Position numbers and translations under genes: made by a program. The notes under the pieces are model-generated. The model was not told where the DNA came from. It searched no databases and saw nothing but the letters and a program-made list of their open reading frames with translations. This document shows positions 60,201-64,000 of a DNA stretch of 64,000 nucleotides, one piece after another; the first letter of the stretch is position 1, and every line of letters starts with the position of its first letter. The stretch is from positions 1-64,000 of the forward strand of contig JANPEF010000082.1 of the NCBI GenBank assembly GCA_031431875.1. Direction: 5' to 3'. This DNA is from Candidatus Eiseniibacteriota bacterium (GTDB lineage: Bacteria; Eisenbacteria; RBG-16-71-46; DASYSL01).

Positions 60201-60851
60201 AACCTGCTCGGGATCGGCATCAACACCGCCTACGACTTCCTGCACGAGGCCAACGGCCGGGAGACGCCATGGCAGCCGATTCTGACCACGGTGCGCGTCC
60301 AGCCACCGAACTACATCAGCGGCGACCTGTCCCTGCGCCATGATCCCGCGGTGGACAAGCTGCTGCGCAACGCTTCGGCTTCGCTGTCGTTGCGCTTCGC
60401 CGGCGGGGGGCGTCCACCGGCGGTCGCCGAGATCCCGCTGGCCGGGAACGAGGCGCAGACTCGCGGCCCGCGCGACCAACTCGTGCCGTGGAGCCTGTCG
60501 ACCTCGATCAGTTACGGGGGCAGCCGGAACGTCCTCGAGAACTGGCAGCACAGCGAGTCGGCCAACCTCGTGGCCGAGATCCAGCCCACCGCCAACTGGA
60601 CGGTGCACTACTACAACCAGATCGATCTCAACGAGCGGCGGATCGTGGCCCAGGAGTGGTCGGTCACGCGCACGCTCCATTGCTGGCAGGCGCAATTCGT
60701 GCGGCGGTTCTCGGGGGGAACGGCCGATTACTACTTCAAGATCGGGATCCTCGACCGCCCCGAGATCTTCCTCGACCGCGGCACCGCCGGGCTGGGGACG
60801 ATCGGCGGCCTGGGCTCGCTGGGTGGGATCGGGTCCTCGCTGGTGCCCTGA
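57192..60851 (+). CDS. lptD: LPS-assembly protein LptD with extended OstA/beta-jellyroll repeats
   Basis: RBS ggagg plus GTG, signal peptide, repeated jellyroll units, YSTC....PHY, R.SGLL.P, GYYFA, R.LHCW. Confidence 0.85.
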   Translation: MLLRRTVAFAISVLLAAIAAVVPVEGQVAPPASAPAAPAPVDSARAIADTTAALRDSAAVSRDTTLPPATAPPVRSIITQPRRGSSPYNVVADRLEGGRTALEGEVIMLIGNVTLSRDGTVVKSQTGRYVKREGTIYLTGGVDAVDGGTRVTALQAAYNEATDFLTLMGQVVVRDKDLVLESDQGSYDQSRGRAELWSRVRGRDRTRTLTADRVTYLRDEQVAQARGRVVARDSTEGLTLTGEAIDYDRRREFALATARPTLVQAGKNGKGATTLVGDTITVATPERIATAAGSVVITRDSLRAEAGRMVYYDREERGVLTGEPRAWTDEVDVRGDSLEIFTRDQGIDRLLVLANGRIEYHADSGADAGGRSLLTAQRMDVWFDAADDGIDSLYATGEAANEFTGKPLPDRLSESNRTTGDLVRLYFDGKDLQEAIVTGKAAGTYRAELAASDTAGARANAVEYEADRIVFEVPKNRIRLEQNAVLRYEQIALRAPEVLFDVKQQVLEARGNPQLEDRGDTLRGTSLAYDLETRRGTVFGARTRYQTGWYAGDKIRRLGDDVIDVGGARYSTCNLDDPHYAFRSDRMKIYLKDKIIARPVLFTLKHVPLLALPFYVFPIRQERTSGLLVPQIQFGFGDATGGYIRNAGYYFAPNDYTDFTVSGDWYPQVPSWVLRGEARYKSLYKFEGQMQGSIGRSFYTTEERNWDFRAQHAQTINDATSLTARANFTSSADYTRDPLTGLPLANRIDRFLTSNLTLSHRRPWASINLVLSRQEDLDTNPISSPLPKLQEQLPSLSIVLPSRTLGHKPGATGGAGFLPFLSTTYLGFNARFLNDRTVSTFLRRDESGAIAVFDTSVARRAYQHVVTLNDNRRLGFVNFGPTFRWTEVVYQYDATGKSPSAGGTWAAGAGASMTLYGTSHGGLGPITSIRHVFQPIFSYSFQPQFSRLRVQVPTSDTTFATVDRFPPFGGIGLSGTRQSFLSVNLVNRFEAKVRTEKGERVLSNLLGIGINTAYDFLHEANGRETPWQPILTTVRVQPPNYISGDLSLRHDPAVDKLLRNASASLSLRFAGGGRPPAVAEIPLAGNEAQTRGPRDQLVPWSLSTSISYGGSRNVLENWQHSESANLVAEIQPTANWTVHYYNQIDLNERRIVAQEWSVTRTLHCWQAQFVRRFSGGTADYYFKIGILDRPEIFLDRGTAGLGTIGGLGSLGGIGSSLVP

Positions 60852-60924
60852 GCCGACCGCCGAGGCCTCCCGTCCGCAAGTTGCAAAGCCTTGCCCGCGC
60901 GCCGCTTGGGGCGGGGGGTGCCGC

Positions 60925-60954
60925 TTGACCGGGGATTTCCCCGGCCCGTACACT
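60925..60954 (+). promoter_or_regulatory. Sigma70-type promoter TTGACC-N18-TACACT with a palindrome in the spacer
   Basis: Hexamers at 60925-60930 and 60949-60954. CCGGGGA-TT-TCCCCGG at 60929-60944. Confidence 0.6.
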
Positions 60955-61007
60955 CGATCCATTCGCCGTACCCGCCGGGGGGTCCCCCGGCTCACAGGAG
61001 GAACTTC

Positions 61008-62360
61008 ATGTCTGTTTCGACGCTGCGCTCGCGGGCGCTCCTGCTCGTGTTCGTGTCCCTCGTCGTCCTTGGCTGGACGGCGTCGGGCGCGCGCACGCAA
61101 GGGAAGCTGACGGGCAAGGTGCTTCCGGTCATCAGCACGTCTGATGTGATCGGTTACACCGCGCCCTGCGGCTGACACACGCCCAAGGGTGGGCTGGCCC
61201 GGCGGGCCAGTTTGATCGACAGCACGAGGATCAAGTTCGGCGATGCGGTCGTCGTCGACGCAGGCGACTGGGCTCCGGACTTCACCAAGCCCAACGAGGC
61301 TCCCAAGCTCCAGTTCCTGCTCGAGATGGCGAACCTCATGAACTACGACGCCCTCGGTGTGGGCGAGCGGGAGCTTGCGTTCGGCCTGCCGACGATCCTC
61401 GAGTTGGCCGCGAAGTCGAAGTCGCCGTTGATTTCGTCGAACCTGATCGACAAGAAGACGGGCAAGCCCGTGTTCAAGACGTCGGTCATCGTCAAGAAGG
61501 GCGGCATCAAGGTCGGCATCTTCGCGGTCCTCGGACCGAAGATCGATCTGCCGGGCAACTCCGGCGAGCTGGTCACGGTCGATGATCCGATCGCGACCGC
61601 GCAGGCCATGGTCGCCGAGTTGCGCAAGCAGGTCGACGTCATCGTCTGCCTCGCGCACCTGGGCCGCGTCGAAGGCGAGGATCTCGCCGCGCAGGTGCCG
61701 GGGATGGATGTCGTGATTCTCGCGCACCACCCGGGCTTCGTCGCCCAGGGCCGGCGCGTCAACGCGGCGATCACGGTCGCCAGCGGTGAGCAGGGCCAGA
61801 ACGTCGGCTTCACGCAGGTGACGCTCGAAGGCAAGAAGGTGATGGACCTCACCTCGGAGACGAAGATCCTGATGCCCGAGATTGGCGACCGCGGCGACAT
61901 CGCGCGGATGGTCAAGGAGTTCGACGACAAGCTGAACGAGGAACAGCGCAAGGCGCAGCAGACGCAGACGCTGCAGAACTCGTCGACGGCGCCCGGGTCG
62001 GATCAGTACCTGGGCAGCGAGAATTGCATGAGCTGCCACCCGGCGCAGTACGAGCAGTGGAAGACGACGCAGCACGCGCACGCCTTCGCCACGCTCGAGC
62101 GGACGCAGAAGGATGCGACGCCCGAGTGCGTCCAGTGCCACGTGGTCGGCTTTGGCCGGCCGGGCGGGTACGAGAACGCGTCGAAGTCGGCGAAGCTCAA
62201 GAACGTCGGTTGCGAGTCGTGCCATGGCTACGGCACGCAGCACGACATGTTCGCGAAGACCGGCGGCAAGGTGGCCGAAGCCGTCTGCCTGACCTGCCAC
62301 ACCCCGGCGAACGACGCGGGCTGGAACTACGCGGCGAAGTTGCCGCGCGTCTCGCACTAG
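61008..62360 (+). CDS. Predicted selenoprotein (450 aa, Sec56): UshA/SoxB-like metallophosphoesterase-fold domain fused to a tetraheme cytochrome c (c554-like) domain
   Basis: RBS aggagg plus ATG 61008 and signal peptide. SDVIGYTAPCG[TGA 61173-61175]HTPKGGLARRAS continues in frame to VDAGD and CLAHLG, then CMSCH, CVQCH, CESCH and CLTCH. Confidence 0.85.
61191..61213 (+). promoter_or_regulatory. Candidate bacterial SECIS hairpin
   Basis: GGGCTGGCCC-GGC-GGGCCAGTTT. The G-starting apical loop begins 25 nt after the in-frame TGA. Confidence 0.7.
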
Positions 62361-62501
62361 GCGGCGGCGGGGGGCCGGGAGCGGCCCAGGGAAGGTAGCG
62401 TGCGACGCGGGCGCGGTGGTACCCTTGGCGGGTACCGCGCGCCCGCGCGGCGTTACGCCGCGGGACCCGCCTCCCCCGACTCCCTCACGCCGGAAGCGCA
62501 C

Positions 62502-63890
62502 ATGCCCCTGCAGCCCGATGGAATGACCTATTTCGAGGACATCATCCAGTCGGTCGGCAACACGCCGCTCGTCCGCCTGAACAAGATGACCAAGGGCCTC
62601 CAGGCCACCGTCCTCGCCAAGGTCGAATCGTTCAATCCCGGCGGCAGCTCGAAGGACCGGATCGGTCTCTCCATGATCCGCGCCGCCGAGGCCGACGGGA
62701 AGCTCAAGCCCGGCGGCACGATCGTCGAGTGCACCTCGGGGAACACGGGCGTCGGCCTGGCCATGGCGGCGGTCGTGCTGGGCTACAAGACCGTGTTCTG
62801 CATGCCGGACAAGGTGGCGACCGAGAAGATCAACCTCCTCAAGGCCTACGGCGCCGAGGTGGTCGTCTGCCCCACCGCAGTCTCGCCCGACTCGCCCGAG
62901 TCGTACTACCAGGTCGCTCGCCGCATCGAACGCGAGCGGCCGAATGCGTTCCTCACCAACCAGTACGACAATCCGGCGAACCCGGCGGCGCACTACCGGA
63001 CGACGGGCCCCGAACTGTGGGAGCAGACCGCGGGCAAGATCGACGTGTTCGTCACCTCGATCGGCACCGGTGGCACGATCAGCGGCACCGCGAAGTACCT
63101 GAAGGAGAAGAACCCGAAGGTCCGCATCGTCGGCGCCGACCCGATCGGCTCGATCCTCCACCAGTGGTTCCACACCCGCACCATGGGCGAGGCGCACACG
63201 TACAAGGTCGAGGGCATCGGCGAGGACTTCCTGCCCGAGGCCTACGACTGGAGCGTGATCGACGACGTCGTGCAGGTGAACGACAAGGACTCGCTGAACA
63301 CGGCGCGCCGCCTCGCCCGCGAGGAGGGCATCCTGGTCGGCGGCTCGTGCGGCACCGCGCTGCACGCCGGGCTGCTCGAGGCGAAGAAGATGAAGCAGGG
63401 CGGCGTGATCGTCGTCATGCTGCCCGACACCGGCGAGCGCTACCTGTCGAAGGTGCACAGCGACGAGTGGATGCGCGACAACCACATGCTCGATCCGGCC
63501 GAGACGCGTGTCGCCGACCTCGTCTTCGGCAAGTCGGCCGGCGGGAAGGCACTGCTGTCGGTCGCGCCGGGCGACCTCGTGCGGAAGGCGCTCGACCTCG
63601 TCCGCGCCTACGACGTGTCGCAGCTCCCGGTCCTCGAGGGCGAGGCTTCCGTCGGCACCGTGTACGACGCGGAGATCATGAAGCGCGTGCTCGACGACCC
63701 GACGGTACTCGGCCGCACGGTGCGCGAGATCATGGACCCGCCGCTGCCGGTGATCGGCGCGCAGGAACCAGTGACGCGCGTGGCGCAACTCCTCAAGCAG
63801 AAGCACGCGGCGGTGCTCGTCTCCGCCAACGGGGGAGGACCCAGCGGAATCCTCACCCGTCTCGATGTCATCTCGCTGATCGCGGAGTGA
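62502..63890 (+). CDS. Cystathionine beta-synthase (PLP domain plus tandem CBS domains)
   Basis: VGNTPLVRL, KVESFNPGGSSKDR, TSGNTG, NQYDNPAN, GTGGT, YKVEGIGEDF, PDTGERYLSK, C-terminal CBS pair. Confidence 0.92.
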   Translation: MPLQPDGMTYFEDIIQSVGNTPLVRLNKMTKGLQATVLAKVESFNPGGSSKDRIGLSMIRAAEADGKLKPGGTIVECTSGNTGVGLAMAAVVLGYKTVFCMPDKVATEKINLLKAYGAEVVVCPTAVSPDSPESYYQVARRIERERPNAFLTNQYDNPANPAAHYRTTGPELWEQTAGKIDVFVTSIGTGGTISGTAKYLKEKNPKVRIVGADPIGSILHQWFHTRTMGEAHTYKVEGIGEDFLPEAYDWSVIDDVVQVNDKDSLNTARRLAREEGILVGGSCGTALHAGLLEAKKMKQGGVIVVMLPDTGERYLSKVHSDEWMRDNHMLDPAETRVADLVFGKSAGGKALLSVAPGDLVRKALDLVRAYDVSQLPVLEGEASVGTVYDAEIMKRVLDDPTVLGRTVREIMDPPLPVIGAQEPVTRVAQLLKQKHAAVLVSANGGGPSGILTRLDVISLIAE

Positions 63891-63892
63891 GC

Positions 63893-64000
63893 ATGGTGCG
63901 CATCGACGCGAAATCCGGCCTCGGCACCCGCGCGATCCACGCGGGCAACGCCCCCGACCCGCGCACGGGCGCGGTCGCGGTGCCGGTGTACCAGACCTCG
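63893..64000 (+). CDS. Cystathionine gamma-lyase/synthase family protein (5' part only)
   Basis: MVRIDAKSGLGTRAIHAGNAPDPRTGAVAVPVYQTS, the typical N-terminus of the Cys/Met metabolism PLP family. Runs off the window edge. Confidence 0.85.
   Translation, partial: MVRIDAKSGLGTRAIHAGNAPDPRTGAVAVPVYQTS

Follow-up and report, generated by a model that had tools for sequence, protein, structure and literature searches.

An in-frame UGA predicted to encode selenocysteine joins two annotated reading frames into an UshA-like tetraheme protein of Eisenbacteria

Introduction

Selenoproteins related to the nucleotidase UshA have been recorded in bioinformatic surveys for some time. An entry 'COG0737, UshA-like, CxU' appears in the selenoprotein set of Zhang and Gladyshev in 2008 (PMC2398784), so the family has stood in lists of CxU proteins since then. 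The original prediction for the present locus had likewise named UshA-like selenoproteins as noted in bioinformatic work, with no function assigned. UshA-like CxU selenoproteins also appear in two reviews (PMC9312934 and PMC13188914). In the parts of these three papers that name the family it is given as UshA-like only, with neither a heme domain nor a function. The family is catalogued as NF041198 (UshA_like_PCGU, 'UshA-like (seleno)protein'), an identifier that we found only in a 2026 review when the literature outside subscription journals was searched. The same literature yielded no functional study of the UshA-like family, and no papers on selenocysteine in Eisenbacteria or on multiheme or tetraheme nucleotidase selenoproteins. 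A further family of degenerate UshA-like selenoproteins, NF049981 (UshA-like selenoprotein family 2), has the motif CxxU.

Several characterized systems resemble parts of such proteins. UshA-type 5'-nucleotidases, among them E. coli UshA (1ush), E. coli c4898 (3ivd), the Thermus enzyme (2z1a) and human CD73, have a calcineurin-like N-terminal domain with a dimetal site and a C-terminal nucleotide-binding domain. SoxB thiosulfohydrolase (2wdc) belongs to the same fold class, is periplasmic, has a manganese site and no hemes, and acts in the context of sulfur chemistry. Cytochrome c554 of Nitrosomonas europaea (1bvb, 1ft5) is a free-standing protein with four CxxCH hemes. One heme of cytochrome c554 is five-coordinate. 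DsbB and VKOR are quinone-using membrane enzymes of disulfide formation. Here we describe an Eisenbacteria gene that combines a 5'-nucleotidase fold with a tetraheme domain and an in-frame UGA. The stretch of DNA analysed, referred to below as the window, is 64,000 nucleotides long.

Results

Two reading frames on one strand form a single gene

Two forward-strand entries in the ORF list, 60891..61175 and 61212..62360 (a 382-aa frame starting at TTG), share one reading frame. The original prediction held that they are halves of one gene separated by a single TGA, and translation bears this out: with TGA read as U, the frame is open from the ATG to the TAG, and U56 is the only recoded position among 450 residues. 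The strong ribosome binding site that had been noted is present, and further upstream lies a promoter-like site with 9 of 12 consensus matches, one such site being found where 0.1 was expected in shuffled sequence (Table 1). The predicted signal peptide was also found: Arg7 and Arg9 precede a hydrophobic core (residues 10–23, Kyte-Doolittle values up to 3.4), and Ser-Gly-Ala comes before Arg29. Inspection of residues 1–28 revealed no twin-arginine motif and no lipobox, and residues 6–25 were modelled as a helix with low confidence. The motifs STSDVIGY and GGLARR flank Pro-Cys54-Gly-U56 and so straddle the TGA, as had been described.

Attachment of c-type heme requires a signal peptide. The downstream ORF, which begins MIDSTR, has none, in agreement with the earlier claim that it lacks an export signal. 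Gene callers do split the gene as foreseen: the 13 best database matches (77–100% identity) are 340–382 aa long, and every one of them starts past the TGA. Among the 150 best representatives from a library of 1.8 billion proteins, 65 appear to be cut short at the N-terminus.

Table 1. Features of the selenoprotein gene and its upstream region, in window coordinates
Feature	Position	Strand	Basis
Promoter-like site 5' of the gene (TTGACC and TACACT, spaced by 18 nt)	60925..60954	+	Consensus match only
Shine-Dalgarno AGGAGG, 6 nt 5' of ATG	60996..61001	+	Sequence inspection
Whole selenoprotein gene, 450 codons and TAG stop, one in-frame TGA	61008..62360	+	Translation; NF041198, 290 bits
Predicted Sec-type signal peptide, residues 1–28	61008..61091	+	Sequence and hydropathy
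Remodelled 5'-nucleotidase-type N-domain, approximately residues 36–325, including linker helix 296–324	61113..61982	+	Structural and column comparison
Pro-Cys54-Gly-Sec56-His-Thr-Pro-Lys-Gly-Gly-Leu loop (Cys54 codon, 61167–61169)	61164..61196	+	Invariant residues in alignments
TGA predicted to be read as selenocysteine, codon 56	61173..61175	+	Aligned codon TGA or Cys in related loci
SECIS-type hairpin; 7-bp core 61194–61200 with 61204–61210, loop GGC 61201–61203	61192..61212	+	Pairing in relatives
Cytochrome c554-like tetraheme domain, residues 330–450	61995..62357	+	PF13435, 1bvb, NF041198
Four CxxCH motifs	62025–62039, 62127–62141, 62211–62225, 62286–62300	+	Translation

The UGA at codon 56 is very probably decoded as selenocysteine

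TGA is otherwise the usual stop in the window: of 36 long ORFs that are GC-rich at third codon positions, 28 end in it. At codon 56 the picture in relatives is of another kind. The original prediction had pointed to homologues as the place where Cys or TGA should recur at this position, and they do so throughout: 74 other related loci show TGA at 53 aligned sites and a Cys codon (TGC or TGT) at 31. PCGC is invariant in an alignment of 19 homologues (19/19), and P53, C54, G55, C/U56, P59, K60, G61 and G62 are invariant in both a 20-sequence and a 69-sequence alignment. In a set of 80 sequences, C54, C/U56 and K60, the columns checked, are each kept in all 80.

The Sec forms also share a hairpin downstream of the codon. 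It starts 19–21 nt 3' of the TGA, and its loop lies 28 nt past the U of UGA. Of 48 Sec forms, 47 have the 7-bp core fully paired (7/7), whereas none of 31 Cys forms does, despite a near-identical peptide, GLARRA, at that place. All 329 cells of the core alignment are paired, and two synonymous third positions covary in one core pair (CG in 32 sequences, GC in 15), so that a compensatory change is present. Folded alone the element is unexceptional (z −1.44, with 19 of 200 shuffles folding equally well), and an Rfam scan of 60700–62700 at E up to 1 returned two chance-level matches and no SECIS family. A second, minor hairpin, which lies 3' of the TGA and 5' of the main one, fell in columns that vary among relatives and was dropped.

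Sec machinery had been expected elsewhere in the genome, and selA (461.6 bits), selB (334.6 bits), selD (373.7 bits) and a tRNA-Sec with anticodon TCA (68 bits) were all detected past their curated cut-offs. Taken together, the Cys in homologues, the retained TGA, the hairpin confined to Sec forms and the genes of the Sec machinery strongly support the predicted decoding of UGA 56 as selenocysteine.

We also considered that the TGA might be a true stop, an error of sequencing or a lesion in a pseudogene, leaving either the 382-codon ORF from the TTG at 61212 or a dead gene. Gene callers do give the 382-aa form, and translation under Table 11 stops at 61175. This reading is opposed by the recurrence of TGA with its hairpin in the other loci, and by a frame that is otherwise open over 450 codons; the short ORF would also miss both the signal peptide and the invariant motif. 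The site is covered by independent assemblies of other runs, and among 40 differences listed (54 more exist) none falls at 61173–61175, which, for a comparison of assembled contigs with part of the differences listed, is weak support. The RNA-library evidence is limited to one assembled contig, that of a relative (approximately 97% identical), and it may reflect DNA carry-over. The stop, error or lesion reading is largely refuted, and we regard it as scarcely credible.

The predicted protein falls within NF041198

The 450-residue protein scored 290 bits against NF041198, whose curated cut-off is 275, and 282.7 bits in the genome search, where in-frame pieces were summed. Its PCGU motif occupies residues 53–56, near the start of the N-domain. 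Judged by score, by the Pro-Cys-Gly-Sec motif, by the match of both domains and by the alternation of Sec and Cys among relatives, the predicted protein is a member of this catalogued family. It differs from the profile in leaving positions 272–396 (about 125) unmatched, so that 450 residues stand against 519 profile positions; here a helix of approximately 30 residues joins the domains. The score against NF049981 was 34 bits (cut-off 140), and the motif here is CxU, not CxxU.

The C-terminal 131 residues alone matched NF041198 at profile positions 397–518 of 519, with 116 bits. The fusion to a tetraheme cytochrome that had been claimed is therefore present but is not a discovery, because the curated family already spans the heme domain. 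The family is very large: a search at E up to 1e-30 gave 3,734 representative clusters. Its model was matched in 201 of 201 genomes of the phylum searched, a count to be read with the fact that the model matches ordinary nucleotidases too.

The N-domain keeps a 5'-nucleotidase fold and has lost the dimetal site

A Foldseek comparison matched the N-domain to 5'-nucleotidases (E 1e-21), and VIA-align gave Z scores of 34.1 with 3ivd, 33.5 with 2z1a and 32.2 with 1ush. The calcineurin-like fold was matched at an rmsd of 2.1–2.3 Å over 275–279 residues (Z 32–34), and the helix start GG-[LV]-ARR is common to this protein and the UshA-type enzymes. The metal site of those enzymes is not kept. Among the dimetal ligands of motifs I–V (DxH, GD, GNH[DE], H and GHxH), Asp46 is the only one retained, and it is kept in 80 of 80 relatives. 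In the motif I His column, at least 77 of the 80 carry some other residue (the six commonest residues were listed, and none is His). The motif II Asp column holds Gly in 59 and Asp in 11 of the 80; the Asn-His columns of motif III hold Glu or Asp in 65 and Lys or Arg in 67; and the motif IV His column holds Gln in 61. Alignment to the solved 5'-nucleotidase 2z1a gave the same ligand changes. A Cys-Gly-Sec loop is inserted, and its His57 is kept in 77 of 80 relatives.

The description of this domain as '5'-nucleotidase/SoxB-type' was thus right in its general part, the 5'-nucleotidase fold, and too specific in naming SoxB. SoxB shares the fold class (Z 31.1 with 2wdc), but its manganese site is not kept here and the SoxB equivalog TIGR04486 gave 74.3 bits against a cut-off of 550, so membership was rejected.

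A protein that is still a phosphoesterase or nucleotidase, with its cytochrome domain serving another purpose, would agree with the fold and with the top matches by sequence, which are to 5'-nucleotidases and 2',3'-cyclic phosphodiesterases. However, changes affect four of the five metal-binding motifs. Residues 330–450 form the heme domain and not the 5'-nucleotidase substrate-binding domain, leaving no nucleotide-binding C-domain, and at E up to 0.1 Pfam returned cytochrome families only, with no match to Metallophos or to the 5'-nucleotidase C-domain. We consider retained phosphoesterase activity highly improbable. Since the dimetal ligands are lost, the function that we favour for the protein is that of a putative heme-wired Cys/Sec redox centre.

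The C-terminal domain resembles cytochrome c554

The four CxxCH motifs named in the original prediction are at residues 340–344, 374–378, 402–406 and 427–431, and every one of the 75 long forms keeps them. PF13435, the family of cytochrome c554, was matched at 65.6 bits (gathering threshold 20.8). Comparison with 1bvb gave a sequence E of 1.2e-13 over the first three motifs and a structural Z of 9.3 (118 residues, 35% identity). The genome contains genes for cytochrome c maturation. Unlike the free-standing cytochrome c554, the tetraheme domain here is a 120-residue unit fused to an enzyme-like domain, and the free-standing c554 equivalog NF043010 scored 56 bits against a cut-off of 400. Two AlphaFold models each had a pTM of 0.68, with the placement of the domains relative to each other uncertain.

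Conserved distal His residues are also fewer than hemes: an 80-relative alignment showed three invariant non-motif His for four hemes and no invariant Met. It may be, then, that one of the hemes is open or takes its ligand from another place. At the last distal His position, 3 of 20 distant members carry Cys instead.

Neighbouring genes differ between Eisenbacteria and distant loci

We surveyed the genes adjoining the family. In Eisenbacteria a cystathionine beta-synthase gene lies on the same strand within the next two genes at 34 of 45 Sec sites, those with at least 1.5 kb of downstream sequence, and a Cys/Met PLP enzyme usually comes next. For the cystathionine beta-synthase copy in the window the score is 533 bits (cut-off 510). 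Distant members were located in metagenomes with a 6-sequence alignment, which replaced a 20-sequence alignment too diverse for the locus scan; in the 40 distant loci of 5 kb or more, there was no cystathionine beta-synthase or gamma-lyase neighbour (0/40). The adjacency to cystathionine beta-synthase is synteny confined to the phylum Eisenbacteria. Spacers to this gene were 124–275 nt where measured (four direct pairs with the Sec gene and six with a Cys paralogue), and in the window a large hairpin lies between the two genes. A functional link to cystathionine beta-synthase or gamma-lyase was downgraded because of the 0/40 distant loci and these spacers.

These data bear on the idea that the substrate of Cys-Gly-Sec is a small inorganic compound of sulfur or selenium, for example sulfide, polysulfide, thiosulfate, sulfite or selenite. 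The centre would then resemble in its action the disulfide in flavocytochrome c sulfide dehydrogenase, though without flavin, and in Eisenbacteria it would be tied to the adjoining transsulfuration genes. The phylum-level synteny, the fold shared with SoxB, the possibly open heme and the Cys at the last distal His position in some distant members are consistent with it. The distant loci, the spacers, the intervening hairpin, the low SoxB equivalog score and the lost SoxB metal site speak against it, and we hold it to be possible but not probable.

Genes upstream are variable and include LptD, peptidase S9 and a zincin-TPR gene. A heavy-metal P-type ATPase was found upstream in 16 of 74 loci and a cupredoxin-like gene in 6 of 74, at times together with the ATPase. 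Such neighbours, together with a loop that would occupy the former dimetal place and the near-universal Asp46 and His57, might suggest that Cys-Gly-Sec-His and Asp46 bind a metalloid or soft metal, for example Cu, Hg, As or Te, in a metal reductase or handling protein. We give this only a slim chance: the upstream genes vary, the ATPase is at least two genes away, and no metal-resistance neighbours occur in the distant loci. No gene partner kept across the whole family was found in the loci surveyed.

DsbA-like neighbours and the disulfide-generating systems of the phylum

In 3 of the 40 distant loci, a DsbA-like gene lies 11–31 nt downstream on the same strand. The three genes (loci L116, L124 and L127) carry the CxxC motifs YCGTCY, SCGHCY and YCHSCY, and that of L127, the sole copy examined in full, has a signal peptide. 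The pairing recalls VKOR-DsbA fusions. The genome of the window (98.45% complete) gave no match to DsbB, VKOR, DSBA or Thioredoxin_4, yet it encodes two heme-copper oxidases. Among 121 genomes of the phylum, each at least 90% complete, DsbB was matched in none and VKOR in 22. The DsbA-like genes in the three loci and the absence of DsbB from the 121 genomes are a hint of a disulfide-generating role.

This would be a narrower version of the thiol/selenol redox role that we favour. The family would comprise a heme-linked disulfide-generating enzyme in which Cys-x-Cys/Sec oxidises the thiols of DsbA-like or exported proteins and passes electrons on through the hemes, the job done elsewhere by DsbB or VKOR. 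CxC peptides mimic protein disulfide isomerase, and the match of the family model in every phylum genome searched also fits, although this model hits ordinary nucleotidases too. The analogy with DsbB and VKOR is functional only: the shared task would be the formation of envelope disulfides with electrons delivered to respiration, but those are membrane enzymes using quinone, whereas the protein described here would be soluble or periplasmic and use hemes, with no relation in sequence or fold. Several observations weigh against this narrower role. A DsbA-like partner is absent from this genome, and the adjacency in 3 of 40 loci possibly reflects a single clade. Genomes with VKOR carry the family as well, so there is no complementary pattern, and related genomes are non-independent samples. 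We therefore regard a disulfide-generating function as unlikely on present evidence.

Discussion

The observation made at this locus was confirmed in all its parts, and its interpretation is supported. Very probably the locus is one intact Sec gene that belongs to NF041198 and encodes a heme-wired periplasmic thiol/selenol redox protein. Of this reading, the redox role is what we infer from the type of motif and the domain fusion only.

The following scheme is proposed. Sec-dependent export and heme attachment would place the mature protein in the periplasm. Its N-domain would have retained the 5'-nucleotidase fold while giving up the two-metal phosphoesterase site, and the place of the lost metals would be taken by the invariant Cys54-Gly-Sec56-His loop, right after the retained ligand Asp46. 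The Cys54-Gly-Sec56 loop may serve as a thiol/selenol redox centre that alternates between a reduced form and a selenenylsulfide, and the c554-like domain could link it to the respiratory chain by shuttling electrons through four hemes. The likeliest substrate classes would be thiols or disulfides, of proteins or small molecules, or small sulfur or selenium compounds. In the disulfide-generating version, a strained Cys-Gly-Sec centre in the emptied metal pocket would feed respiration through the four c-type hemes. The broader proposal that UshA-like Cys-x-Sec/Cys tetraheme proteins are an unrecognised periplasmic disulfide-generating class, replacing DsbB or VKOR in aerobes like Eisenbacteria, is a speculative one that we doubt somewhat more strongly than that version itself.

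In public protein sets this gene and many of its relatives are truncated at the N-terminus and named 'hypothetical' or 'cyclic-nucleotide phosphodiesterase'; the truncated annotations miss the signal peptide and the active motif alike. If a function in heme-wired thiol oxidation or sulfur redox chemistry were shown, it would account for an orphan selenoprotein that is among the commonest and reveal why a one-electron heme wire goes with selenium.

A read-through frame encodes a predicted exported tetraheme selenoprotein

The ORF list of the window contains 60891..61175 and 61212..62360, both on the + strand and in the same frame. Translation of 61008-62360 with TGA as selenocysteine (Sec, U) gave 450 residues, with U56 as the sole recoded codon, in the context Pro-Cys54-Gly-U56-His-Thr-Pro-Lys-Gly-Gly. 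Near the N-terminus, sequence and hydropathy show two Arg residues, then a hydrophobic core (residues 10-23) and a cleavage-type site, Ser-Gly-Ala; four CxxCH motifs lie at residues 340, 374, 402 and 427. The single read-through frame, ribosome binding site, length and Cys54-Gly-U56 motif of the original prediction were confirmed by sequence, ORF list and translation, and its signal peptide and four heme motifs were borne out; the gene had been both seen and interpreted correctly, in all details of the observation.

Coordinates of the Sec gene, its neighbourhood and related features
Feature	Position	Strand	Description
Shine-Dalgarno AGGAGG	60996-61001	+	read from sequence
Start ATG	61008	+	read from sequence
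In-frame TGA, codon 56	61173-61175	+	read from sequence
7-bp stem, loop GGC	61194-61200 / 61204-61210	+	downstream of TGA; comparative pairing
Stop TAG	62358-62360	+	read from sequence
Conserved neighbourhood	window 61008-64000; related loci L013-L086		gene order
Extra segment	L013:7360-8440, L014:4528-5619 vs window 62360-62400		encodes 332-337-aa Cys paralogue without heme domain
DsbA-like genes	distant metagenome loci L116:1472-2092, L124:3164-3823, L127:4362-4997		downstream of Cys-form family genes; CxxC active sites

In a profile search the protein matched NCBIfam NF041198 ('UshA-like (seleno)protein') at 290 bits against a cut-off of 275. Its last 131 residues alone matched positions 397-518 of 519, and the tetraheme domain is therefore already part of the curated family, whereas model positions 272-396 have no counterpart in the protein. 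In the portions of the literature available to us, the GOS study (Zhang & Gladyshev 2008, PMC2398784) enters the family as 'COG0737, UshA-like, CxU', counting 76 sequences with Sec and 92 with Cys, and it appears again in two reviews (PMC9312934 and PMC13188914, the latter citing NF041198 and the 2008 paper); these portions give neither a function nor hemes for it, and the literature searched yielded no functional study. At E up to 1e-30 the family spans 3,734 representative clusters; among its best 150 representatives, 65 appear to have been shortened by gene callers. These results place the protein in a known family as a predicted exported, Sec-containing, four-heme member; the gene extends a very large group and does not define a new class. 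In many Eisenbacteria genomes the heme half of the model (343-519) also matched within open frames of ~600-1,500 aa, and in the window's own genome two weak nucleotidase-like matches fall in a frame of 1,257 aa (contig C28:31135-33795).

The TGA codon and the Sec machinery

Full-length database homologues carry Cys at position 56, PCGC being invariant in 19/19 aligned. Scanning one genome per species gave 74 loci, almost all carrying the label Candidatus Eisenbacteria; in these the aligned codon reads TGA at 53 sites and is a Cys codon (TGC or TGT) at 31 (the raw TGA total of 55 counts the window twice; 53 is without it). Related loci thus hold either TGA or a Cys codon, as predicted. The 13 closest database matches (77-100% identity, 340-382 aa) all start 3' of the TGA, the expected output of a gene caller on a Sec gene, in agreement with the claim that callers split it; reading this gene through is a correct annotation fix. 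The window's own genome (98.45% complete) encodes SelA, SelB, SelD and a tRNA-Sec with anticodon TCA, so that all four components sought were present, each above its curated cut-off. Cytochrome c maturation genes are also present. Elsewhere in the window TGA is the usual stop codon: of 36 long ORFs rich in GC at the third codon position, 28 terminate with it.

The site is covered by assembled contigs of four public runs, of which two belong to other studies. The 40 differences listed for them leave 61173-61175 untouched; 54 more lie outside that list. An RNA-library contig from a relative ~97% identical covers 61082-62400, which is compatible with transcription and is no proof of it.

A SECIS-type hairpin distinguishes Sec from Cys forms

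The stem downstream of the TGA pairs without a mismatch in 47 of 48 distinct Sec-form sequences, the sole exception (L055) being frameshifted, and in 0/31 Cys forms, even though these encode nearly the same GLARRA peptide. In the alignment of the 47 sequences plus the window, 329/329 cells were paired; the third pair is C-G in 32 sequences and G-C in 15, through two synonymous third positions, and none of the slid controls came near the observed pairing. The hairpin alone is unexceptional (folding z = -1.44) and an Rfam scan of the region returned no matching family; the case for it rests on the contrast between Sec and Cys forms. Short contigs from several unrelated metagenome and RNA runs matched just the 50 nt at 61164-61213, which hold the PCGU codons and the hairpin, and their flanks encode the other Eisenbacteria clade (TDVKGKT...). 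This match shows nucleotide-level conservation of the putative recoding signal.

Evolution of the locus

The usual Eisenbacteria order is Sec gene, (Cys paralogue), cystathionine beta-synthase, gamma-lyase-type PLP enzyme, DUF4097 protein and 455-aa protein, with the Cys paralogue 3' of both PLP genes in ~10 loci; this order was not found outside the phylum, in 40 distant metagenome loci. A quick maximum-likelihood tree was built from 80 sequences; its backbone consists of Sec forms, within which the Cys forms are nested as at least four to six changes. Cys forms are often tandem paralogues adjoining a Sec gene. The window's own genome holds the Sec copy only, and in two relatives (L013 and L014, 93-94% identical) an additional 1.08-kb segment separates the Sec gene from cystathionine beta-synthase. 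Of the Cys paralogue that this segment encodes, the window retains the final 20 nt, indicating that the segment was deleted there, and a contig from another study also crosses the junction. A large GC-rich hairpin between these two genes (62362-62492, -92 kcal/mol, z -2.35, no U tract) may act as a terminator or represent a repeat element.

Five loci (L041, L047, L051, L064 and L066) are binned elsewhere, as Terriglobales, Udaeobacter, Methylomirabilota, Verrucomicrobiia and Acidiferrales. Their Sec genes nest in Eisenbacteria clades of the tree; L047, L051 and L066 share the Eisenbacteria downstream order, and L041 and L064 end just past the Sec gene. Mis-binning of the contigs is the probable explanation, recent transfer the alternative.

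A nucleotidase fold that has lost most of its metal ligands

The AlphaFold N-domain had pLDDT > 90 and the heme domain 74-83 when 69 sequences were used; pTM was 0.68 in both models, and the mutual placement of the two domains is therefore uncertain. Structural superposition matches the N-domain to 5'-nucleotidases (3ivd, Z 34.1; 2z1a, 33.5; 1ush, 32.2) and to SoxB (Z 31.1), and the C-domain to cytochrome c554 (1bvb; Z 9.3, 118 residues, 35% identity). Foldseek and sequence matches also support these assignments.

Ligand columns were counted in 80 sequences, after five (L023, L031, L055, L068, L085) of the 85 built were set aside. These five public-MAG copies appear frameshifted, truncated or fused, probably through assembly errors. 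Asp46 is retained in 80/80. The motif I His column has no His in at least 77/80 (none of the six commonest residues listed is His), the motif II Asp column is Gly in 59, the motif III Asn-His columns are Glu/Asp in 65 and Lys/Arg in 67, and the motif IV His column is Gln in 61. Equivalent changes appear in the alignment to 2z1a, and a Pfam search of the protein gave neither a Metallophos nor a nucleotidase C-domain match. At the sequence level these substitutions show loss of the phosphoesterase site, and the protein is predicted to lack a dimetal centre. The invariant Cys-Gly-Sec-His loop begins eight residues past Asp46 and, by homology, would sit over the former metal site.

Across 75 long forms the heme domain has as invariant residues the four CxxCH motifs and three more His (356, 412 and the C-terminal 450), with no invariant Met. 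Cytochrome c554 has a five-coordinate heme. With just three invariant extra His, one heme here would be five-coordinate, as in c554, or ligated from elsewhere. In 3 of 20 distant members (P0175, P0185, P0223) Cys occupies the His450 column, where the others keep the C-terminal distal His; this is a hint of His/Cys heme ligation in that clade.

Proposed working and candidate substrates

We propose that Cys54 and Sec56 would form a redox pair that passes electrons to and from the fused hemes. One candidate substrate class is small compounds of sulfur or selenium: cystathionine beta-synthase is among the next two genes at 34 of 45 Eisenbacteria Sec sites with enough downstream sequence. However, this order occurs in 0/40 distant loci and the spacers are 124-275 nt, so the arrangement is read as within-phylum synteny.

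Thiols and disulfides are the other candidate class, with a possible thiol-oxidase role. A DsbA-like CxxC gene lies 11-31 nt downstream in 3 of 40 distant metagenome loci of at least 5 kb (from 80 fetched with six database members), and a signal peptide is present in L127, the one copy read along its whole length. The window's own genome has no DsbB, VKOR, DSBA or Thioredoxin_4 match, yet has two heme-copper oxidases; across the 121 genomes of the phylum with a completeness of 90% or more, DsbB turned up in none, VKOR in 22 and DSBA in 43. Against a thiol oxidase, the own genome is without a DsbA partner, the family is retained in VKOR-bearing genomes, and related genomes are non-independent samples. 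The family model matched in 201/201 genomes of the phylum searched, above cut-off in 59; the loose matches are non-specific, since they also occur in 9 of 14 control genomes. Genome tallies include one unpublished genome (G015), on which none depends. DSBA-family genes with a single in-frame TGA occur in several Eisenbacteria genomes and probably encode Sec-containing DsbA, which the GOS paper (PMC2398784) includes among its selenoprotein types. For the family itself, DsbA adjacency and the absence of DsbB are leads that merit a test at the bench.
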